A stretch of 64,000 nucleotides of DNA from a virus, in IMG/VR virus record IMGVR_UViG_3300048593_000672, positions 1-64,000 of that record; one strand, written 5' to 3'. The position numbers and the translations under genes are program-made. Positions 6,762 through 63,971 of the stretch are shown here, piece by piece (the stretch's first letter is position 1; the number at the start of each line of letters is the position of its first letter). The notes below the pieces were generated by a model. It saw only the letters and a program-made list of their open reading frames with translations. It did not search any database and was not told the origin of the DNA.

Positions 6762-6830
6762 ACAAAGTTCTACTTTTGTTTTGATAATGCTCTTGCCAAC
6801 TTTAATTTGTCTTGTTTTGTGGGGGTGGCA

Positions 6831-7829
6831 ATGATAACTTTTGCCAGTCTTTTTACTGGATATGGTGGGGCTGATCTGGGGGCTGTCCATGCAGGATTGA
6901 CCCGTGTATGGGGGATTGAAAAAGACCCTAGTATTGCTTACGTTGCCAACTTAAATCATGGTAACTATATCTTATGTTTAGACGCAAAAGATTGTAATTT
7001 TAGCTTGTTTCAACGTCCAGACTGGCTACACGCAAGCCCTCCCTGTACAACTGCCACTGTAGTTAATGACAAAAAAGAATCACAGGAAGATATTGATTTA
7101 GCTCAGGCAATTTGTCGAGCGATTGAGGTATTGCAACCTCAATATTTTAGTCTTGAAAATGTTGCGGGTTATGTCAGATATCAATCTTTTGCCAAGATCG
7201 TATCACGACTATACGATCTTAATTACGCATGGGATTATAAAGTCTTGGATTGTTCTGATTACGGAGTTCCACAAGCTCGAAAAAGATTATTCTTTGTAGC
7301 GTCAAAAAATCCCTCTGTTTTTGGATGGGTTGATCGCATTCCAAAAGTAGAGGAAAAAGCCAATTGGTATGACGCGATCGCTGATTTAATCCCTACTCTC
7401 CCAGAATGCAAGCTAAAAGAGTCTCAAAAAACAGCGTTAGTTAATAGTCATGAAGTTTTGACTAACTCCATTGAAAAGTCAGAATACTTCCGACAATTAC
7501 CAAATCTAGCTATTCAAAATAGCGGTTCTCGCAAAGATAAAGACGGGAATCCTACTAACACTATCCGACTAGCCAATGAGACTATCTGGACTATTAGGGC
7601 TATGTCTGGCAACGTCCGACCTAACCCCCATCAAGTAACTTTAATCGTTGATGGTCGGGTATTACGTCCTACGATTGAATGTTATGCCAGATGGCAATCT
7701 TTTCATAATAGCTATCAGTTTAGCGGTGATTTTAAGCTAGATATGCGCGGAGTGGGCAATGCAGTCCCACCATTAATGTTTTCTCAAATTGTAAGGAGTG
7801 TTTTAAATGATTTTTGCAAAACTTACTGA
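6831..7829 (+). CDS. DNA cytosine-C5 methyltransferase
   Basis: LFTGYGG, SPPC, ENV, GVPQARKR, GNAVPP motifs. Confidence 0.93.
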   Translation: MITFASLFTGYGGADLGAVHAGLTRVWGIEKDPSIAYVANLNHGNYILCLDAKDCNFSLFQRPDWLHASPPCTTATVVNDKKESQEDIDLAQAICRAIEVLQPQYFSLENVAGYVRYQSFAKIVSRLYDLNYAWDYKVLDCSDYGVPQARKRLFFVASKNPSVFGWVDRIPKVEEKANWYDAIADLIPTLPECKLKESQKTALVNSHEVLTNSIEKSEYFRQLPNLAIQNSGSRKDKDGNPTNTIRLANETIWTIRAMSGNVRPNPHQVTLIVDGRVLRPTIECYARWQSFHNSYQFSGDFKLDMRGVGNAVPPLMFSQIVRSVLNDFCKTY

Positions 7830-8136
7830 CATCGAACAACAATTACTTTTATTACTTGTTGATGGCATGACATCTGATGAAATTGCCACTATCTTAGGAA
7901 AGTCTAAAAGCACTATTGATAATCAAATTGCTGAACTAAGAGAAAAGACTGGTCACAAGACCCGACTAAGTTTGGTGAATGACTATTACAGATCAACTTT
8001 CTGTAAAGACACTATTCAGGATGAACTTAATATCTTAGATGTAAAAATTGCCGTGTGTGAGGCAGAGTTAGAAGTTCATCGCACTATGCGACAAATCAAA
8101 TTTAATCAATGGTTAAAAACTCAAAGAGGTTATTGA
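7807..8136 (+). CDS. LuxR-type HTH regulator
   Basis: LT..EQQLL.LLVDGMTSDEIATILGKSKSTI pattern. Confidence 0.8.
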   Translation: MIFAKLTDIEQQLLLLLVDGMTSDEIATILGKSKSTIDNQIAELREKTGHKTRLSLVNDYYRSTFCKDTIQDELNILDVKIAVCEAELEVHRTMRQIKFNQWLKTQRGY

Positions 8137-8137
8137 T

Positions 8138-9091
8138 ATGAAGACTTACATTATCACTTGGCTTCGTGGCAATCAGACTCTATATCTTAGCGAGATACTT
8201 GGAAGCCAATCAAATTGGAGTCATGACATTAAAGACGCTCTCAGATTCTCCCAAAACAATATTCCCAATCTCTGTATAGATAAGTTTTATCAAGTTCATG
8301 ACTTGAGTAAGCTTCGCAAACTAATTAAATCCCCCCTACGCTACCCAGGCGGCAAGTCAAGAGCCATCAAACACATTCTCCCACTTTTTCCCAAGGGGAT
8401 TTCTAAGGTTGTTAGTCCTTTTATGGGCGGGGGAAACATTGAGATTAATCTGGCAAATCAGGGAATTGAAGTTCATGCCTACGATAAATTTAGCCCGTTA
8501 ATTTTTTGTTGGCAATTAATCAACAGCGTTCCCGTTGAGTTTGCAACTTTAATTCAAAAGCATTATCCGTTATCAGAAGCAAGCTTCTATCGAGAGCAAA
8601 AGCGTTATTGTTCGTTACTGGAAGCGGACAATTTTATGGAGGTAAGACTTGAATTAGCTTTATGGTTCTTTATCCTAAACCGTTCATCGTTTAATGGTAC
8701 AACATTGTCTGGGGGGTGTTCTAATCCGTCAAAACAGTTCACTCAGTCATCTATTGATCGGGTACGTAACTGGCAAAAATTAGACAACTTAAAAATCGGT
8801 TATGCAGATTTCAAGGATTCACTAAATGCACACAAAGATGCGTTTGTCTTTGCAGATCCTCTATACATGATTGACAGCAATCTTTATGGCAATAAAGGCG
8901 ATTTACATAAGAATTTTGACCATCAAGGATTGTTTAAATACTTAAATGATAGAAATGGTTGGATTCTCTGTTACAACGATTGTTCAACTATCAGGGAGAT
9001 GTATTCACGGTTTAAAATTGTTGAACCTGAATGGAGTTATGGTATGGGCAAAAATAAAAAGAGTCGTGAACTCTTGATTTTAAATTATTAG
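8138..9091 (+). CDS. Dam-like (D12 class) adenine methyltransferase with variant DPLY motif
   Basis: SPLRYPGGKS, PFMGGG, LNRSSFNG; DPLY in place of DPPY. Confidence 0.85.
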   Translation: MKTYIITWLRGNQTLYLSEILGSQSNWSHDIKDALRFSQNNIPNLCIDKFYQVHDLSKLRKLIKSPLRYPGGKSRAIKHILPLFPKGISKVVSPFMGGGNIEINLANQGIEVHAYDKFSPLIFCWQLINSVPVEFATLIQKHYPLSEASFYREQKRYCSLLEADNFMEVRLELALWFFILNRSSFNGTTLSGGCSNPSKQFTQSSIDRVRNWQKLDNLKIGYADFKDSLNAHKDAFVFADPLYMIDSNLYGNKGDLHKNFDHQGLFKYLNDRNGWILCYNDCSTIREMYSRFKIVEPEWSYGMGKNKKSRELLILNY

Positions 9092-16886: not shown

Positions 16887-19800
16887 CCAACTGGCGATCG
16901 CGTTCAATCTGACTCATTGACTTGCCAAGATCATTCGTGTTAGCCACTTCAATCTTAATGGTTTGATTGAAGTTGTTAACAGTTCCCTCGCTGGTATTAG
17001 TCTGAGTAGTGTTGGGGATGTAGGAAACAGGGCCGCCCTTGGCAAAATTCTTAACATCCTTGGCCATACGTTCTGACCAGTCTTTATAGTTGCGGTAGTC
17101 GCTGGCTTCGTTTGCAGAAATCACATACTCGTCAGCATTAAGGACGGCCAGGATGGGCCGCTTACCACCCGACTGCGACCTCTCCCGATTCATTGCTTGA
17201 CTAATGCCTTCTACCAGTCCCCCACCCGCATAATTATCAATCTTGAGGGGGTCAACGGGGCCGCCGTCGGCAAAGTTGAACGCATGACTAATCATTCCTG
17301 TAAAGCCGCCCGATAAGCTGTCAGCTATTGATTGACCCGCACTGGCATTACCAGCGTTAAACAGATTGCCAAAAATATCACTGCCAGCATTGATAAAGCT
17401 ACCGCCGCCGCTAACTGTTAAAGCACCAGCAAAAGCAGATAGGGCTGTAGTCGCTTCTGTCAGTCCCAAAATAAAACCGGCCATGGCGGGGTCAGTGGAA
17501 GTAATACCAGCGAGGAAAATGTTATCCATTGCTTGGCTGGTATTAGTCGTTGATTCCGTCAGGCTAGTAAATGCACTACTCAAATCAATTGTGTCGGGTA
17601 AAGCTTGACCTGTTGTTAATGTATTGCTTAAGTCAAAAGGCACAATGTTGTTGGCCGCTATGCTTGCCCCCCGCTCACCTAGTCGCGTAATTACATGGGG
17701 ATAAAATTCTTTGTTATCCAGACCGAGCATTGGCCCAACCCATTCAGCGATCGCATTTTGGAAGGGTTTGATAGCTAACTGCTCTAACATCATCCCCAAA
17801 ACAAGATCCTTGACTTTGTTGAGCGACTCCCCTAGTCCCTTAGACTCTAGGATCGCGCTACGCAGCCCCGAACTAAACTCTTTTAGACCTGGGATAGCGT
17901 CAACAAATGATCGCTTAATATTTAACTCACTAATCTCAGCCTGAAACCGCCGCATTTCACTAGCCTGTTGAGGCGAGTAAGCACCATCCCGAATCTGCTT
18001 CTCTAAATCAACTCTGGCTTGAGCCGCTTGCATCCGAGCATTAATAATCGCACTGGGGTCAATTAACGTTCCCATTCCCCAATCATTCTGCGCCCCAACG
18101 TCATAACGGGTTTTGTAGAGGTCAGCTTGAATTTTGGCATAACCCTGTTTAGATGCCATAATTTTATCGAGTCGCAACCAGGCTTCAGTGGCTCGTTTAG
18201 TGGGTTCTTCTAACGCAGCCATCGCCTTGGATTGCCTGTCAATTTCTTCCCGACGAGCTTGCATAATGGGAATGCTGTCGGTATAAAGTTTTAAATTGCT
18301 TTGATAAACAGACATAGCTTGCAACTCTTGAGTAGTTGCTTGGCGACCAGCTTTCGTCAGTTCAGCTTGCTTGTCAGCTAAGGCTTGTGCCGCAACCGCC
18401 GCACCAATATAGGCATCATCCATCTGTCTGCCAAGATTCCGCAATTCATCATCAAAATCACGGTTCATCTGGCGGAATTGTACACTAACTCCTTCTACAG
18501 CCAGGTTAATCTCATCAGCAGCCGTTTTATAGCCCTTGCTGTTAATGGCTAACTCACGATACTTGATATTGTTATCCTCAACTTTTCGACTCAAGTTAAG
18601 AGCCATATCTTGAAGGGATTGTAATTGCTGTTGGAAGGCATTGTTGAACTTGACCACCTCAAGATTGCCTTGCAGATCAAGCACAGCCCGATTGACCCCA
18701 ATTGTCGCATTCTTAACATCATTAATCTGACCAGCCGTATTAGTTAAACTACTCGTATCTTGTACAGTGATTGGATTTTGATCTGTAATTTGCTGTAAGC
18801 CGCTATAGTCATTAATTGCCCTTGGCTGGTATTTTGTAATAAATGGACTTTGTACGTTTGGCAGGACATTTCCCCCATTCATATCAACTTGAGGCTCAAG
18901 TTGAGAAGGTTGATAGCCTGGGAGTGTTTGATATTTTTTAATGTTGGGGTTGACATTGGCATTGCTACTACCAATCCCCTTGGCCGCATCAACTCTTGCC
19001 TGACTTTCCTTAAATTGTTTGGCAATTGCCTCAGTGCGTTTTTTCCAATCCTTCGACGACATCCTATCAATAAACTTAATGCCTTTTGACTCATAAAACT
19101 CATCAAGTTTAAAGGCTTCAGGATAAAGTTCTTTTTGATATTTGATAATATCTTCTAATGGCTTGCGGCTAATATTATTTGGATCGTTCAACTCAGCTTG
19201 ACGTTTTCTTGCCTTCTCCTGTTCGATCCGTTTGGCCCGCGCAGCAGTAGTGGCATTAGTCTGGAAAATTGCAGATCCCATATCACTAATACCCTCACTG
19301 GCATCAGCGACTAGCCACTCTTTGGGGGCCGCCGATCTCATTTGATTGTATAAGATACCCCTTACTCTAGATAAAGACTTCAAGTATTTAGATCCGTAGG
19401 CTGGATCTGTAGCATAGCGACCATAGCGACCCTTAAAGTCACGGTTGATAAAATCTTCAGGAGTGCTAAAGAAAAAGTCTTTTTTAAGTTTAATTGCTGC
19501 GTACTCTAAGCCCTGTCCGTAGGTTTTAAAGTGCTTGTTATTGCCAGCATCATCGTTGCCATAGTTCAGTGGGTTTTTAGTAAACTTCCCTCGTCCCTTG
19601 GTTCCAAAATGGCTTTCAATAAATGCTTGAGTTACTAAGGCATCAATGCTAACTCCTGACTTGGTAGCAGCATTTTTAAAATCCTCAACTGTCATTTGAG
19701 AACCATACTGGTTCAGCAATCTTGCTAAGTTTTTCTCCCATCCCATCGATTGAGTAGTAGCAGCCTGCGCCGGAGCGGTCAAGATGTTTTGCGCTGGTAC

Positions 19801-22800: not shown

Positions 22801-25800
22801 TTCGGGAAACATCTTGCTATTTTTCATCTGGTTGGTTAACTGTTCATGGGTTAATCCCTGGGAACGAGCCATAGCCCCGATAGCTTGGGGTAGTACCTCC
22901 GCAAGCTGCGAACGTAGTTCCTCGGCCATTATTTCGCCTTTTCCGATCATCTGAACTACACTGAGGAACGCCCGTTGCTGTTCATCGGGCGTTGCACCCT
23001 GACCAACCAACGCAGCCGAGAACCCTTCAAAGATTTCTTGTACCTGGGGCGCAACGGTGGTGTTGGCGGCGGCGACTGTTAACTTAGTGAATGACTGAGC
23101 AGCAACCAACGCATTAGCTCCAATCTCATCAGCGTATTGGGCGATCTCCTTTAATTTACTGGCTGCATTAATGCTTGAGTCGTAAGTTAAAGCCGCTTTC
23201 ATCCGTTCCAATTGCAGGGCGGTATCAATACCAGTGCGGGCAAAATCAACGAGCACCTGTTCGACCTGCTGAAAGCCCATGTACATCAACAGCCCACCAG
23301 CAAAGCCTTTGATGTTTTCAATGATGCGGGCAAGACCAGGCATTTTTTCTTCTAATGCCCCCATGATCCGACCTAAGCCACGAATGCCAGCACCAGCGGC
23401 ACCGGCCCCCGCTTCAATTTCATCAAGAATGTTGTTAAACCATTCCCAAAATCCCTTATCGGCATTTTGAGGTGCTTGAGCAATCCCCGCAACCATATTG
23501 TTAGCACGACTATTAATAAAGTCTTTGGCATTATCGCCCATGCGCCGAGGTGCTAAATCATCAACAGTTAAACCACGACGAGGCGGCACTGGATTGGGAG
23601 AAGCACCAGCAGGGGGAATAGGTGGTTTGCGGGGGGGTTGTCCATTGCCACCACCAACAGGAACGTGATTATAAAGTCCAGCCGCCATAATGCGATTGGC
23701 TTCTGCAATTTGCCAGGCCTGACCTGTTAGGGGAGTAGAATCTCTCACTGGTCTTGTTGCACTTGTCTGTTGCTGTTGAATTTCCGAAACCCACAATTGA
23801 AGAGCATCACCCCATACGTCATCACCATGTAGCGGGGGGGACTGACTTGCAATCACCCTATTATTAGGAGGTAATGGTGGAGGGACAATTCCTCTCGCTG
23901 GTGTTTGTGCCTCGGATAGAGGAGGTAGCGGTAGAAGATTAGATACCCTGTCTTGTGCAACAACAGCATTTAATTCTTTTTCATAAATAAAGGAAACAGC
24001 CCTTTTATAACCAGTACTGTTAATATCCCTCCCGATATTGATGTTTTTAATATCGCGAAGATACAAGTTTTTAAGACCTAAAGCCTCTTCTTTGTAATTC
24101 TCAATATTTTTCCAACCCTCTTTTTCTAATTGGGGAACTGGCAAATCAAGCATCTCAATTGATTGGATAGCACCATCAATACCAATCTTGTAGCCTAAGA
24201 CTAAATTCTCACCAATCTTGATAAAGACTTTACTGGGCGATTTTTCCCCCAGAACATCCATCGCGGTTGTGATAAGTTTTTTGCTGGTGTTGGCGATCGC
24301 AGCAATCGGCTCACCCTCCGAACCAGTAATACCAGCCGTCAGACCTTTATTGATGTTTAGACCGACTCGTTCCATCTTTCCATAATTTTCATCCCCTTCC
24401 ATCTCTTTAAAGCCATATCCGGCCCAAAGCCTTTCGCTACGAGCATCTATTGGGGATGTACGAATTGTGTTGGAGCCGACTACACTAAACAATTCTTGCA
24501 TCCACAAATCAAGTTGTTTGCGAAGGGCTGCACGAATAGCGGGGTCTTTAGTTGGTTTAAAATCTCCATTAACCATTAGATCGGATAGATACCAACCCAT
24601 AGTCTTTGACACATAAGCGTGTAGATCTAGCTTTTGCCCTTCAACTACTGCACTTCTAGTAAACCTAGTTCCTACTTCGGGGGGTTGAATTTGACTGTCT
24701 TTTGTTGTCAACTCTATTCTTGGCATAGAGGATTCAATTGACAGCTTTTTGTTGATGTCAAGGCTGGCTTTTTTACCTGTAGCAATGATTTTATCAAGAT
24801 AAGAAAGTATATTTTTCCTGACAGAATCAAAGGGTAATGTATCTGTGTCAGAAGCATTTGGCAGCATACTCTCTGCCTCTAGAAATGCTTGTTTTGCTGG
24901 ACTATCTTCAGTTTTGTTTACGACTCTTCTTTGAAAGCTTGAGTGATTAAAATCTTTAACGATACTACTGACATTCGCATCTTCCGCAAGTCCATAGTCA
25001 ATCGCTCTTAGCTGCCCTTGTTTATCTATTAAAATATTGCCACCATGTAAGTCATTGTGTGCAATACCATTTTCTATTAAAGACTTTTTGAGTCGAATAA
25101 CTTCTTTAAAGAAAGACTCTGGATACTTCCCGCCATCAGAAATATTATAAGCATCATTGGCAGTTTGCCCCCGAATCAGTTCCATTGCAATCGCAGCGTC
25201 ACTAGAGCTATATCGCTTTGATCCCAAAACCCTTGGGCCAAGTCCAAGCTCTCCGGCCCTTCGAGATAGTTCTATTTCCTTGTCTGTTATTTGTCCATGT
25301 TTTAAGGCATATCCTCCCATATCATAGACAGTTCCATAAAGACCTTCCCCCAGTGTTTTTATCCCAGGAATAGTCTTAAATTCCCATTTATGATCATATA
25401 ATTCCTGTTCTGTAGGGATATTTATGGCACTTTCGTTTTTTTGTATCGGCTGCTTTGTTACTGTCCTTTGTTTGATACTATCCAAAGCAGCTTTATTCCC
25501 ACCACCCCATTCATAATAAGTTTCAAGTGTCTCAGCTAAGTTGTCTGCAAAATTATGACCAAATTGCTTAGATTGGGCAAGTTCTCTTTTAACAATGCTT
25601 TCAATATCGCCAATAATCGCCGCCATTTCTTTCGGCACTTTCTGAGCAACTTGGCTAAAGTCTAAGCCTTGATCTAGTCCAGCAACAATGTCTTGACCAA
25701 TCTCTTTAAATACCAGCGAGGGAGAATTACTTTTGAGCGTCTTTTTACTACTAGTAATCATTTCCCGCAACATTTCAATCGTTGCGTCTTTCGGCAAATG

Positions 25801-28800
25801 ACCCCGTTCCTGTAATGCTAATAAAATGCCATCAGGAATAGCGACACCCATCCCATGCGCTTTTTTGAGGATGTCTTTTGGATCAACAAACTGGTCAAAT
25901 TGACCTTTCCAACCGCCCAATATTTTGTTAGTTGAAACAAGACTACCTTTGCTGCTTAATGCTTGGTCTGGCAGCCCTCCCAAAGATTGTTTTTCTGCAA
26001 TAAAGTTTTTAGAGTAGTTGGCTATACTACTAATACGTTCAACGTCAATAATGTCATTAATGATCCTAATTTGATCGTTAATATTTTTGCGATTAGTTTT
26101 TAATGAATCAATTAACTGCTTAAGCTTAACTTCTGGCGAGTCTTCCCTTGCTGGTGCTAGTGCGTAAGCATCCCCACGACTGGGAGGTAGGGGTGATAAA
26201 ACTGTCGTTGCAGGGGGTAGGGCATTCGTTTCTTTTGCCAGTAATTCAGCGTAAACGTGCTCAACTGGGCGGGGCATTAATCTGGGCAGGCTAGTTATAG
26301 CTTTGTTGCCAAAATTGCCGATTCCCGTTAACAGGTTGTAGGTCTTATCCTCAACAGCACTAGGCAATAATGCCAGTGGTTTTGCTACTTGATTTAATGC
26401 AAATTGTCCTACTCCACTCGCGGTCCGACCACTCAGCAGATAAGTCAATATAGTTCCAGCCCCACCCAATGCAGCCGTTCCCGCATCACCAATTCCAGAG
26501 CCTAAAGCCCCCATTCCTGGAATACGACTCAACCAACTAGCAGCAGTCGCGGCCCCACTCGTTAATCCTTCAGGCAATAATCCCGCAATTCCACTACCGA
26601 CAGCCCCAATTCCATGACTCAATAACGGTGTGACAACCCCGCTAGAGATAGCGTCCATTCCCGCCCCTAACAAAGGTAGATCGTGTCCCGCCATGCCTAA
26701 GGCGATCGCGGGGGAAATAGCTTGAGTTACCTTCTTAGCAGCTTGAAGATTTACTAATCCAAGGCTTACGACCTGAACAGTATCAAAAGCATATTTTTCT
26801 ATTCCCTTAGCCACTCCGTAATGCTGTGATGCAATAGTGCCTAGCGATCGCATCATCTTGTTAAACAAGCTGACTTCTGGGGAAGCCAAAGCACCAGCAG
26901 GGGAAATGTCATTGGCTGGCTGTTGATCGTTTACGCCTGGGGGATTTACTTCAGAGGGATTACCACCACGACCAACCATATCCCGATGAAAAGCAGCAAG
27001 TTCTCGATAAAGCATCTCTAAATACTTTTCGGCACCGCTTAAATTGCTTTCGCTGGTATTAGTAAAAGCTGACTCGACAGGGTTATTATTTTCCGTTGCT
27101 GGTGTTTGGGACTCTACGGGATTATTTGCTTTTTCTGTTACGGTACGCGAAAGATTAGGCAACTCTCCAATCATTCTGACAAGCAACGATGGGTCGGATG
27201 GGTTTCTAATGCTTTCGTCAGATGGGAGTCCGAGCGTATTTATTCTGGTAGCTCCAACGCCCTGCGATTGAAAAATGCCAGATAAAGAAAATTCATCGGT
27301 AGGAAAGATGGGAATATTTGCTTTTGTCTCTTCAGAAAGATTGCCTTTATTAGCAACAAACTCATCCATGACCGATTGCAAATACTCATACATTTTGACA
27401 ATTTGATCTTGATAAATACCAAATTGACTACCCTTCTCTTTAAACCACTTAATTGTTTCATGAGATAATTGCCGATTCAATCCTTTTACAGCTTCAGGGT
27501 TTAAGTCCCTCGCAAAATAACCAGCAAGAGAAGAATCGCCTGACTTGAAAGCAGCCAAGTCTTGATTGGTTTGTTTTGCCTCTTCTTGATATTTTAAATA
27601 GCCGCCTAAGTCACTAGGGTTTTCAGGCATTTTAACGCCAACATCAGAAAGTCGTTTTGCTAATTCAACTTCTATTTCTTTGAAATATTGGTTTATCAGG
27701 TCGTGTAACGCCTTACCACCAGTTCTTGTCAGTGTTACAGTCGCCGCACCATGCTCAAAAAAGCGAGTAATCAGTGATTCAACGTCAAAATTACCCCCCG
27801 CACTTTGACTTGTCTTAAAGCCTTTAAATGGAGAATTAAGGTCAAATTCACCTGTTTTCATCAATGATTTTAATTGTTCCCCAATCCCTATCAACTCATA
27901 TAAATTACCCGTTGATTCCGCTATTCCCGCTTCTGTCTTTCGATTTAATCCAGTAGGACGTTCACTACCAATCGCATTGTAAAAAATAGGGGGAAACGCA
28001 GGTTCCTTAAATAAATGTTTCCAGTCGTGAGCATCCGTCCCAGAAAGTCCTATTGTGTTTAAGAATGAAGCACCTGGCGCATTAAATCCCCTCCCCAAAC
28101 CAAGTCTATTACCAAATGTTAGGGGGTCGCCTTTAAGAATTGCTGATTGATAATTTTGGGGGATAACACCAGACAAGCCCAGTGTCGGATAAGACATTGC
28201 CAACGTATTTGTTTGCAAGCCCATGTATTGAGCAGTTCTGGCGTAAGACATTGCATCCATCCCGCCAGACATTGAATAGCCAACAAAACGACCTTCTTTC
28301 CCCTGACTGTTAGCTGCTAAAGTATTTGCTAATGCTTGAGTTGCCGCTATCGATGTTGCCATTGGATTAATGGCAAATAACGCTTGTCTTGCCACATTCA
28401 TTACCGTATTGGCAACATCCTTATCCCCCATCAGATCGGGGAGAATGGTCGAAAGTCCCTTCTTTATTAGTTCTTCTGCTGGTCTTTTTTCGCCTGGCAA
28501 CGGTGCATCTGAGTTGGGATTTTCGACAGGAATAAAGCGAACGTTAGGAGCAAAAGGTTCAAGGGCCATTGCTATTTGACGACCACCTTGACCCCCCGCA
28601 AATTGACCTCCACCCCCTACACTTACTGCGCCACTGTAATTTTGTAAGTCAGGAAAATTGCCTTTTATTTGATCGTAAAGCTGCTGAGCTTGTTTGCTAG
28701 TTCGATAAGTCTGAATGCCTTGAATTAGCTTTAATAGTGGTTGAAATTCCGCAATAATGGGATTAATAACATTGTCAACTATCCCTTTTGGTTGGGCTAA

Positions 28801-31178: not shown

Positions 31179-31433
31179 TTAGCTTGACAACAACTTTAGT
31201 TGAAAACTCTCTGGGCTATACAACACCCGATGATTCTTCTGGTAAATTAATTGGGGTGGCAACTCAACCAAGATTGGCACTTCATTAATACCAGCAAGAA
31301 GATTGATTGTGTCGGGTAGGTAGGGAGCAAAATAGCCCAGGCGATAAAAAAGAGTCTGGTCAACCACTTTACAGTTGGCTAACCAGACTAAATCCAAATC
31401 GTTCCAATGAGAGCGCAAAAGATTAAGCCGCAT
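31179..31433 (-). CDS. Hypothetical protein
   Basis: ATG overlapping the tail tube gene end. Confidence 0.5.
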   Translation of the reverse strand: MRLNLLRSHWNDLDLVWLANCKVVDQTLFYRLGYFAPYLPDTINLLAGINEVPILVELPPQLIYQKNHRVLYSPESFQLKLLSS

Positions 31434-32127
31434 TTTGGGGGATCTTTTTCCATGTACCGTTAACATGCAACGTGACGTTGTATTGATTAAAGGCGTTGTT
31501 GGAACGTTGTTCAGACTCACTGAATCGGCAGTTAGCAATACGACCGCCTCGACCTTGGGCATTAAGAATCATGACTCGAAGCATCTTGCCAGCTTCAATC
31601 GCATCTTGCATTAACTTCTTGCCAGGATCACCGTAAATGTCGGGGCCGGAAGTTTGTCCAGAAGACATAACACCAGAAACAGCCTTGGCAATCTCTAAAG
31701 TGTTAAATGCTTGATCTTGATATTCCTGGGATTGGTTATCGGTGTTGGCAGACTTGGCAGAGAAAAAGGGGACAAAGCATTCAACAATAGCTGCCGAGTT
31801 GTCTGCGATCGCTACGGCTGCGGGATAGATGGGGATTGTGGTAGCGTTTGCGGCAGTTTTGGTCTTAACGCGAACAACTTTAGAAACGTTACTAACAACA
31901 AAAACAATGGGCTGACCTTCATACAAGATTTTGGTGCAACCAGTATCAACAGTGATAGTCGTGTCATCAACGTCAACAGCCGCAGCTAAAGTGAGCGTTT
32001 CAATGCCTGGGATAACACCGGCGGGAGCTTCTTCATCAAAAGGAGTGGGAGAGACAAAGATTTGAGTACCCTGACCAGGTGTGTAAAGGCTGGTATCGTC
32101 GAGGGTAGTGTAATTATCACCGGCCAT
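31423..32127 (-). CDS. Major tail tube protein
   Basis: Position; PGQGTQIFVS N-terminus and YNVTLHVNG C-terminus. Confidence 0.7.
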   Translation of the reverse strand: MAGDNYTTLDDTSLYTPGQGTQIFVSPTPFDEEAPAGVIPGIETLTLAAAVDVDDTTITVDTGCTKILYEGQPIVFVVSNVSKVVRVKTKTAANATTIPIYPAAVAIADNSAAIVECFVPFFSAKSANTDNQSQEYQDQAFNTLEIAKAVSGVMSSGQTSGPDIYGDPGKKLMQDAIEAGKMLRVMILNAQGRGGRIANCRFSESEQRSNNAFNQYNVTLHVNGTWKKIPQNAA

Positions 32128-62435: not shown

Positions 62436-63971
62436 TTACGGCGCAAGCCTTTCAGCCCCCACCCCCAACATAGTCTCAATCCTACTAATCGCAATATCAG
62501 CATAGGACGGCGAAAGCTCTATGCCATACCCCACCCGACCAGTACTAGCAGCCGCAACAATAGTAGATCCACTGCCTGCAAAGCAATCAACAATTAGATC
62601 GCCTTCGTCGCTGAATGCTTTTATGAACCACTCTGGGAGCTTATGGGGAAAGGCTGCTTGATGGCCATTGTTTTTATTAACTATGTGAATATCTAAGACA
62701 TTACTAGGCAGGGCAACACCACTAACAAGATCGCTATTATCTAGCACCGGCATATTCCAGTGAGTGCCATTGCCACTATCTTCTCTTTTGCTGGTATTAG
62801 TCCCATCAAAGCAATAATCAGACTCATGCCCTACTCGCTCAGGGTAGAAGCGTTCAATTGCCCTATCTGACTTGGTAAAATGAAACACAGGTTCAAAGCC
62901 ATTTTTAAAACGATTTGGCCAACTCCCAGGCGCGGCATTGCGTACCCAGCAAAACTCATCTACAAAACACCAGCCCCATTGTTCAACGTGGGCTATTGTT
63001 AGCTTTTTAACGTATAAATGTCTTTGCCCTTGTTCACAATGCTCTTTAATGTTTAAAAAGTAACTGCCGCTATTGGCTAACCACAGCTTAATATTATGCT
63101 GAACACTTTTAAACCAACCAACATAGTTATCTGGCTCTATTGGCACAAAACCACTATTCTCATCATATTTGCGCTGGCTGGCATAGGGCGGGCTAGTAAA
63201 GATAATGTCTGCTTTTTTATCGCCTAACAATTTGGCCCACACAGCAAGATCTAAGCAGTCACCAACAATAATCCTATGATCGCCTATCGCCCAAATATCG
63301 CCTGGCTTGCTCCTATTCTCTACTATCTTATCATCGTCTAAGCTATTGTTATCAGTCAGATCGTTGTCTGTAACAGCGTTTAAATCGTCGTTAAAACTTG
63401 TTTGTTGATTAGCATTGTAGATATTATCTAAGCTATCAAAACAAGCTAAGTTAGTGACATTATTTTCTAACAGATAACTAGACTGAGCAGCTAACAAAGA
63501 CTGATCAAACAACTCAAAAACAGCTTGATCGCCTAACGCTGCAACGGTTGTGGCATTGTGGTCTATACTATATGCTATTGCGGCGGCTTGACTGTCTGAC
63601 TTAGCGATAGTAGCTGGCACCAACCAATCAATAATCTTGTCACCCTTAAGTAGCGGTTCAACGTCTTTTGGTGGGTCGGTCTTATTTTTTTTGTAGAGGC
63701 TTTTGAGGACGTTAAGACTACGATCATGCCCCTCCACCAGCGTTAATTTAATACTTTTATCGGCTAAAATATCATCTACACTTAAGTCTTTATACTTATC
63801 ATCTAGAAAGACTAGATCGACTTGGATCGGGTCACGGAAGCCATGATAGTCGATACTGGCTAAAGTGTGACTAGTAGAGTGCTTTTTGGAGTTATTAACT
63901 AAGCCTTCTAGACGGGAAAGGGGGATAAGGCGGTATTCAAGCATAATTGGTAAGACGACAACTAAAATCAA
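62436..63971 (-). CDS. ParB-like N-terminal domain fused to beta-class DNA methyltransferase (N4-C/N6-A)
   Basis: GFRDPI...EGH.R; TSPPY, HQAAFP, DCFAGSG. Confidence 0.88.
   Translation of the reverse strand: MILVVVLPIMLEYRLIPLSRLEGLVNNSKKHSTSHTLASIDYHGFRDPIQVDLVFLDDKYKDLSVDDILADKSIKLTLVEGHDRSLNVLKSLYKKNKTDPPKDVEPLLKGDKIIDWLVPATIAKSDSQAAAIAYSIDHNATTVAALGDQAVFELFDQSLLAAQSSYLLENNVTNLACFDSLDNIYNANQQTSFNDDLNAVTDNDLTDNNSLDDDKIVENRSKPGDIWAIGDHRIIVGDCLDLAVWAKLLGDKKADIIFTSPPYASQRKYDENSGFVPIEPDNYVGWFKSVQHNIKLWLANSGSYFLNIKEHCEQGQRHLYVKKLTIAHVEQWGWCFVDEFCWVRNAAPGSWPNRFKNGFEPVFHFTKSDRAIERFYPERVGHESDYCFDGTNTSKREDSGNGTHWNMPVLDNSDLVSGVALPSNVLDIHIVNKNNGHQAAFPHKLPEWFIKAFSDEGDLIVDCFAGSGSTIVAAASTGRVGYGIELSPSYADIAISRIETMLGVGAERLAP

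Follow-up and report, generated by a model that had tools for sequence, protein, structure and literature searches.

The tape measure proteins (TMPs) of phages are known to carry wall-degrading domains and, in one case, a virion RNA polymerase. The latter is the N-terminal part of gp96, the 5,002-amino-acid (aa) TMP of Thermus phage P23-45, and transcribes the pre-early genes of that phage (Chaban et al. 2024, PMC10770324). The related idea of enzyme-carrying virion proteins already exists for other virion proteins; for the truncated kinases of phage polyvalent proteins, a role as delivered effectors that modify host proteins has been predicted (Iyer, Burroughs, Anand, de Souza, Aravind 2017, PMC5512222). 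No description of a kinase within a TMP was found in a literature search. Here, we report on a 64-kb window, the first part of a 74.7-kb linear IMG/VR virus record (IMGVR_UViG_3300048593_000672; completeness estimate, 94%), in which a giant TMP contains a predicted kinase domain. In our judgment, there is about an even chance that this TMP carries a minimal protein-kinase-like enzyme serving as a virion-delivered effector; the domain is recognized from its motifs and predicted fold, and its delivery is something that we infer by analogy.

The TMP is encoded on the minus strand of the window in a single uninterrupted frame, and its product is hereafter called P0001:

16861 to 29763, minus strand: giant TMP open reading frame (ORF), 4300 aa
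22819 to 23226, minus strand: tape measure core (TMP_3 / TIGR02675), located with Pfam and NCBIfam profiles

The ORF is called the tail TMP of an uncultured long-tailed phage because of several concordant matches. Pfam TMP_3 matches aa 2180-2315 (41.8 bits; cut-off 41), and NCBIfam TIGR02675 (tape_meas_nterm) matches aa 2249-2314 (32.7 bits; cut-off 21.35). The annotated TMPs of two Cylindrospermopsis phages resemble the last 140 aa of P0001, and one of its sister proteins carries the source annotation "tape measure protein." Elsewhere, the genome has genes for a large terminase, for helicases and tail proteins, and for several DNA methyltransferases.

The predicted kinase lies N-terminal of the tape measure core, and its elements can be placed as follows:

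24781 to 25413, minus strand: kinase-fold domain, TMP aa 1451-1661, comprising an N-lobe, catalytic loop, DYG, and short four-helix C-lobe, without an activation loop (Pfam, AlphaFold2 (AF2), Foldseek, VIA-align)
25324 to 25353, minus strand: Gly-rich ATP loop LGEGLYGTVY, aa 1471-1480, with G1474 and G1477 (string position; conservation)
25300 to 25302, minus strand: K1488, within YALKHG, aa 1485-1490 (string position)
25276 to 25278, minus strand: E1496 (conserved column)
25024 to 25059, minus strand: catalytic loop HNDLHGGNILID, aa 1569-1580, with H1569, D1571, H1573, and N1576 (string position; conservation)
24991 to 25002, minus strand: IDYG, aa 1588-1591, the DFG-equivalent metal-binding motif, with D1589 and G1591 (string position; conservation)

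The full set of Gly loop, beta3 Lys and helix-C Glu, HxD...N loop, and DFG-type Asp is present in this domain, and such a motif set is far beyond chance. When aa 1455-1600 were scanned alone, Pkinase (PF00069) scored 37.8 bits (cut-off 31.7) and ABC1 (PF03109) 35.8 bits (cut-off 22.9); in a scan of the whole of P0001, Pkinase drops to 29.5, and ABC1, at 31.9, is still above its cut-off. Weaker Pfam matches were obtained for RIO1 (21.5; cut-off 22), APH (18.2), and choline kinase (15.5), and NCBIfam returned weak matches to UbiB, Bud32 (18.7 vs. a cut-off of 199), and Kdo kinase. The Pfam kinase matches end at profile position ~150-160 of 263. When the domain was aligned with 99 shorter relatives, the Asp residues of HND and DYG, D1571 and D1589 (alignment D131 and D149), proved invariant. 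The columns of G1474 (G34), G1477 (G37), K1488 (K48), E1496 (E56), H1569 (H129), H1573 (H133), N1576 (N136), and G1591 (G151) are at least 90% conserved, and a second alignment, with 49 longer relatives, gave a similar pattern. The domain is apparently catalytically competent. An initial annotation of the window had quoted the motif strings and claimed a complete kinase motif set within the TMP. All of the strings were recovered within a few bases of where it had placed them, in the one 4300-aa minus-strand ORF, and the claim is upheld by Pfam scores above cut-offs, a predicted local distance difference test (pLDDT) score above 90 for the AF2 core, and the conserved catalytic columns.

The AF2 model built with the alignment of relatives has a mean pLDDT of 79, with values above 90 for model residues 30-160, which cover the N-lobe and catalytic core. 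Beyond the core come four short helices (~65 aa), the last of which ends at model residue 221 (TMP residue 1661), with disorder thereafter:

24661 to 24774, minus strand: predicted disordered linker after the kinase, aa 1664-1701 (pLDDT <50, model residues 224-261)

Foldseek matched the kinase model to protein kinases with a probability of 1.0. VIA-align, which is independent of Foldseek, ranked TTBK1 first (Z 14.2, root-mean-square deviation 3.5, 192 residues aligned), followed by Rio2 (Z 13.2), the RNA kinase Ark1 (Z 13.1, 164 of 173 residues), TkArkI (Z 12.8), and Rio1 (Z 12.3). Neither a Hanks-type activation segment ending in APE nor a full C-lobe (helices F-I) was found in the model, where a helix begins 9 residues past DYG, and the catalytic loop is of the HND rather than the HRD type (non-RD). 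The kinase is therefore probably a minimal enzyme of the RIO/Bud32-like size class and constitutively competent: with a non-RD loop and no activation loop, activating phosphorylation would be unneeded. The initial annotation had proposed structure prediction for TMP residues ~1450-1800, and the outcome was divided, with a confident kinase fold in the first part and a following domain modeled at a pLDDT of 44.7.

The same features bear on what the enzyme might phosphorylate. A delivered kinase could act on a non-protein substrate, such as a small molecule, a lipid, an envelope precursor, or a nucleic acid, in the manner of APH, choline kinase, Kdo kinase, UbiB, or the archaeal tRNA 2'-kinase Ark1. 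The D-L-H-G-G-N loop fits those families, as do the ABC1, APH, and choline kinase scores and the weak NCBIfam matches given above. Ark1, aligned over nearly its whole length, is tied with protein kinases in the fold ranking, and peptide-binding C-lobe elements, like the activation loop, are lacking in the AF2 model. Against this, Pkinase gives the best Pfam score, protein kinases are the top matches with both Foldseek and VIA-align, and RIO and Bud32, which have these same features, phosphorylate proteins. We consider a non-protein substrate unlikely.

An exhaustive HMMER search with aa 1441-1831 as the query against 1.84 billion representatives retrieved 487 relatives at E≤0.001, nearly all of which cover the kinase core only. 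The closest viral structures in BFVD are free-standing kinases of the Synechococcus phages S-CBWM1, S-TIM5, and S-H34. Among 50,697 cultured-phage records searched with tblastn, 18 contain relatives, and these belong to cyanophages or Bacillus phages. Multi-domain relatives (n=49) include five with Phage_Mu_F (the SPP1 gp7-type head protein), one with a portal, and one with TMP_3. The TMP_3 carrier, P0109, is a protein of 3,641 aa that is ~24% identical to P0001 in four blocks covering about half its length. The order of its parts is as in P0001: a module containing the motif SPS.VF..IG (the SPS module) lies at aa 809, and behind it, aa 871-1005 form an intact kinase (GEGSFGKV, AVK, HGDLQALN, DFG) that scores 78 bits with the family hidden Markov model (HMM). 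Despite ~26% identity between the P0001 and P0109 kinases, all catalytic residues are kept in both.

In a quick maximum-likelihood tree, both TMP kinases fall into one 14-member clade with moderate support (Shimodaira-Hasegawa-like approximate likelihood-ratio test, 86). The tree omitted the two close sisters of P0001 (P0002 and P0152), the eukaryotic multi-kinase proteins P0008 and P0012, and the cluster duplicates P0154-P0156. Because the MuF-fused and portal-fused kinases are placed elsewhere, apart from the TMP clade, fusions of the kinase to virion proteins would have arisen more than once. On this comparison, the combination of TMP and kinase is old; the predicted kinase occurs in two or more TMP lineages that are separated by deep divergence. 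Close relatives of the cassette itself were found neither in cultured phages (blastn) nor in IMG/VR, and a metagenome scan for them returned SPS-module matches only. When the kinase was sought among further giant proteins with a word-indexed search, the query itself was the sole match.

Some of the relatives have architectures or features of their own. P0003 (1105 aa) combines MuF, an intein, and two kinases; P0006 (819 aa) combines MuF with two kinases; P0029 (811 aa) combines a portal with a kinase; and P0028 (1116 aa) joins a kinase to a weak ADP-ribosyltransferase match. Many of the small free-standing relatives have a Cys-rich N-terminal consensus, CxxGxxCGxxCxxxxxxC, possibly a metal-binding knuckle, which the TMP copy lacks.

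Closer to P0001 stand two sister TMPs, P0002 (4,414 aa) and P0152 (4,621 aa). In BLASTP alignments with P0001, they are 75-81% identical in the final 2,600 residues; another block, aa 1208-1425 or 1208-1368, is 79-92% identical. Between these blocks lies a gap that contains the kinase:

24703 to 25488, minus strand: slot segment, aa 1426-1687, replaced by 13 aa in P0002 (gap between BLASTP blocks)

In P0152, the divergence starts earlier, at aa 1369, and an unrelated 272-aa insert takes the place of the kinase. As judged from these alignments, the kinase sits in a variable slot of the TMP, because the sisters hold 13 aa or an unrelated insert where P0001 has the kinase. The insert of P0152 (P0152 aa 1702-1974) contains an HExxH-type string, THELTHAF, which hints at a zinc peptidase; a Pfam search of the insert gave no match.

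In each sister, a diverged member of this kinase family also lies ~500 residues before the slot, at aa 872-1146 in P0002 and aa 876-1150 in P0152. In this upstream kinase, a coiled-coil insert separates the N-lobe (aa 872-977) from the catalytic part (aa 1020-1146), and the family HMM score is weak; HNDLASGN and DFG are kept. All four TMPs of the group thereby appear to carry a kinase-family domain with HxD..N and DxG retained, the sisters' copies being weak-scoring and partly checked. The slot and the split copies could be taken to mean that the kinase of P0001 is a passenger, either inactive or without relevance, that is retained as a spacer or scaffold to lengthen the TMP or to give it a docking surface: close sisters have 13 aa or an unrelated insert in its place, and their upstream copy is interrupted and scores weakly. 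However, every catalytic residue is kept both here and in the distant P0109 kinase, and a spacer would not retain the Gly loop, the Lys-Glu pair, HxD..N, and DxG. We regard a passenger role as very unlikely.

Base composition was considered as a sign of recent import and rejected as uninformative: the GC content of the cassette (0.384, rank 4 of 243 windows) is matched by that of the adjoining conserved block (0.385). The lowest-GC part of the TMP, at 24703-26142 on the minus strand, consists of the kinase cassette and the preceding conserved block; the mean GC content of the TMP is 0.438.

The initial annotation had gone further than the kinase, proposing that a second enzyme, a GNAT-like acetyltransferase, follows it and that the pair was inserted by recombination between two flanking SPS repeats. 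The regions concerned are these:

25648 to 25791, minus strand: SPS module copy 1, aa 1325-1372, with SPSLVFKEIG (aa 1347-1356) at 25696-25725 (conserved in sisters)
24154 to 24366, minus strand: SPS module copy 2, aa 1800-1870, with SPSKVFIKIG (aa 1842-1851) at 24211-24240 (tblastn in cultured phages; metagenome TMPs)
24319 to 24702, minus strand: conserved domain, aa 1688-1815, ending in RLWAGYGF (aa 1778-1785, 24409-24432); 88-96% identical in P0002 and P0152

The 128-aa domain is the best-conserved stretch among the three sister TMPs (88-96% vs. 75-81% elsewhere). Relatives of it were not detected elsewhere, nor as a small protein in a word-indexed search. The GNAT reading of aa 1688-1815 was rejected, since profile matches and motif A are lacking and the motif B look-alike is within chance. 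A Pfam scan of aa 1601-1801 returned no family at E≤10, and a PDB sequence search of the domain gave no match and no GNAT at E≤10. With the GNAT profiles PF00583, PF13508, and PF13673, the entire 74.7-kb genome gave no match at E≤10, while each of 14 control genomes did. Motif A ([QR]xxGx[GA]) does not occur in aa 1688-1815, and the motif-B-type pattern [LIVMF][YFW]...GF arises in 20% of shuffles of P0001. The AF2 model of the domain, built from 3 near-identical sequences, is the one that reached a pLDDT of 44.7. A fold search with this low-pLDDT model gave a best Z of 5.0 (non-GNAT), with GNATs at Z 3.2-3.8, which is noise level. Neither profile, motif A, nor fold evidence thus backs an acetyltransferase next to the kinase. 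Moreover, the kinase and the 128-aa domain do not form one cassette, because the latter remains in the sisters, where the slot kinase is absent.

Both SPS copies are real and flank the kinase region, as the initial annotation had noted, and the pair is beyond chance: among 2000 shuffles, SPS.VF..IG did not arise in even one copy. What they flank it with is a generic TMP module. The 71-aa copy-2 module was found with tblastn in 178 cultured-phage records, including Staphylococcus 80alpha, Streptomyces, Mycobacterium, and Leuconostoc, and 24 of 25 among the matches listed fall under annotated tape measure genes. Other giant TMPs have one to three copies, and in the distant P0109, the module sits just upstream of the kinase. 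The profiles PF10145, TIGR01541, and TIGR01760 had no match in the genome, and NCBIfam returned only a spurious TrmB match for the module. On this distribution, the SPS module is a standard TMP building block and not a recombination scar.

Between the two copies, identity is 31% in protein, over 48 residues, and 37.5% in DNA, where the longest common run is 8 nt, and no DNA repeat joining them was found. The indel is bordered by aa 1425/1426 (1368 for P0152) on the left and by aa 1687/1688 on the right, positions that do not coincide with both SPS repeats; the left border of P0152 alone is close to copy 1, 13 residues past it. Insertion through SPS-SPS recombination was accordingly rejected on three grounds: the lack of nucleotide similarity, the position of the borders, and the generic nature of the module. 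Comparison of the sisters, which the initial annotation had suggested as a search for variable cassettes between SPS repeats, did reveal a variable slot, though one whose borders do not coincide with both repeats. The complete model, in which a kinase and a GNAT entered together through the SPS repeats and are injected as a pair, draws on the flanking SPS peptides, on the P0152 divergence that begins 13 aa past copy 1, on the few GNAT structures in the noise-level fold list, and on the co-occurrence of GNATs and kinases in phage polyvalent proteins (PMC5512222). Weighed against the absence of any Pfam or PDB sequence match, the three null GNAT profiles, the chance-level motif B, the poor model, the 128-aa domain kept in sisters without a slot kinase, and the dissimilar DNA of a module present in 178 cultured phages, this model is extremely improbable.

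With the kinase considered on its own, the question becomes how it might reach a host. Two further kinds of feature lie C-terminal of it in P0001:

22264 to 22590, minus strand: two strongly hydrophobic, membrane-helix-like segments, aa 2392-2415 and 2477-2500 (Kyte-Doolittle, 19-aa window mean ≥1.6)
19375 to 19686, minus strand: glucosaminidase-like (peptidoglycan hydrolase) domain, aa 3360-3463, in the C-terminal third of P0001 (Pfam PF01832, E 4.9e-6, 27.7 bits, below the cut-off of 30.2)

In siphophage tails, the C-terminal end of the TMP exits first. During infection, the TMP would leave the tail tube, and its C-terminal half, with the hydrolase-like domain and the hydrophobic helices, would handle the wall and the membrane. 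The N-terminal half, including the kinase, would then follow via the channel into the cytoplasm, the sole compartment with ATP. There, the kinase would refold and phosphorylate host targets ahead of phage gene expression; the targets would most likely be proteins, modified on Ser/Thr, and the purpose take-over or counter-defense. Delivery of the kinase with the virion is plausible because its relatives are repeatedly fused to virion proteins and because a published TMP-fused enzyme acts after ejection (PMC10770324).

Several considerations weigh against a delivered protein kinase. Both close sisters lack a kinase at the slot, so tail assembly, and perhaps also infection, can proceed without one there, and all 18 cultured-phage relatives are separate genes. 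As to the class of enzyme, the ABC1 and Pkinase scores are nearly equal, the RNA kinase Ark1 stands among the protein kinases in the VIA-align ranking, and a loop of the type D-L-H-x-G-N is usual also in small-molecule kinases (APH, choline kinase, ABC1/UbiB). The lumen of a tail tube is narrow, and several copies of a folded ~24-kDa kinase are not expected to fit inside it, so the kinase would need to travel unfolded or occupy a wider cavity, and its proteolytic removal at the disordered linker is possible. Its presence in the virion, uncleaved assembly, arrival in the cytoplasm, and activity are all presumed.

Some of these points fit a kinase that acts in the phage-producing cell instead. 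Being part of a TMP that is made late and in abundance, it could phosphorylate host or phage proteins at that stage, or its ATP binding or autophosphorylation could aid the folding, holding, or assembly of this very long protein, and it would be inert, buried, or clipped in the virion. ATP is present where the TMP is made, the predicted disordered linker could be a processing site, the tail tube would hardly admit a folded kinase, and the sisters without a slot kinase still have full TMPs. However, the independent fusions to MuF and portal, which are capsid-travelling proteins, point to delivery and not to assembly; the free-standing cyanophage relatives show that the enzyme can do without a TMP; and P23-45 provides the precedent of a TMP-borne enzyme acting after ejection. 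On balance, a role confined to the producing cell seems to us an improbable account.

The delivered kinase can be extended, tentatively, to a TMP that serves as an exchangeable effector carrier. The slot between SPS copy 1 and the 128-aa domain would hold a kinase, nothing, or an HExxH-bearing insert, and the kinase would enter the cytoplasm with the DNA and phosphorylate host proteins before the phage genes are read. This is possible, although we lean against it in its complete form.

If a signaling-type kinase is indeed delivered in this manner, the phage would have protein phosphorylation at its disposal within the first seconds after infection and ahead of transcription, with the disabling of defense systems and the resetting of host physiology as candidate uses. 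Such a pre-expression take-over or anti-defense step has not yet been shown for any TMP. The kinase domain is small and self-contained with clear catalytic residues, which makes the idea directly testable, and the indel pattern among the sisters (kinase, no insert, other insert) offers a natural comparison for the worth of the cargo to the phage.

Two observations concern other parts of the window. Overlapping ORFs at 31423-32127 and 31179-31562 (window 31179-32127, minus strand), upstream of the TMP, could be a tail-chaperone pair expressed through a programmed frameshift; a PHROGs search of this pair gave no match. The 75-kb phage has at least three DNA methyltransferase genes, which lie at window positions 6807-9091 (plus strand) and 62436-63971 (minus strand).

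Among known phage kinases, gp0.7 of T7 is made from the incoming genome and is not carried in the virion. It resembles the present case in being a phage kinase that phosphorylates host proteins early, and no sequence match between it and the TMP kinase appeared in the searches made; the likeness is a functional analogy, one that the initial annotation had drawn and that is also drawn for the polyvalent proteins (PMC5512222). By sequence and structure, the free-standing cyanophage kinases are nearer. The RIO-like, APH-like, and ChoK-like kinases of S-CBWM1 and a kinase-domain protein of S-TIM5 occupy BFVD ranks 1, 2, 4, and 11, and the S-CBWM1 RIO-like kinase (P0009) is 33% identical to the TMP kinase (E 2.7e-15). 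These are, however, putative Ser/Thr kinases encoded by separate small genes of myoviruses, rather than parts of a structural protein. With RIO, Bud32, and Ark1, the TMP kinase shares a compact kinase fold without an activation loop, but it scores below the cut-offs of both the RIO and Bud32 families and lacks their partner domains and cellular context.

The kinases of polyvalent proteins likewise belong to the Ser/Thr/Tyr-kinase superfamily, keep an intact active site, and reside in large multi-enzyme phage proteins. Their C-terminal subdomain is lost or reduced; here, the C-lobe is reduced but not wholly absent. The polyvalent-protein clade is defined by an insert that separates the catalytic His from the Asp (PMC5512222), whereas the TMP kinase reads H1569-N-D1571, with a single residue between the two and no insert. 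That clade occurs mainly in (pro)phages of Verrucomicrobia-Chlamydia and Bacteroidetes, and the carrier here is a TMP, which goes unmentioned in that work (PMC5512222).

P23-45 gp96 differs in its activity, being an RNA polymerase that was found experimentally to be present in virions and active; the kinase described here lies in the middle of the N-terminal half of its TMP, is known from sequence, and has no sequence relationship with gp96. What the two have in common is their setting: each is a giant TMP of a long-tailed phage with an enzyme, here a predicted one, N-terminal of the core that needs cytoplasmic substrates, and in gp96, this enzyme acts before phage expression.

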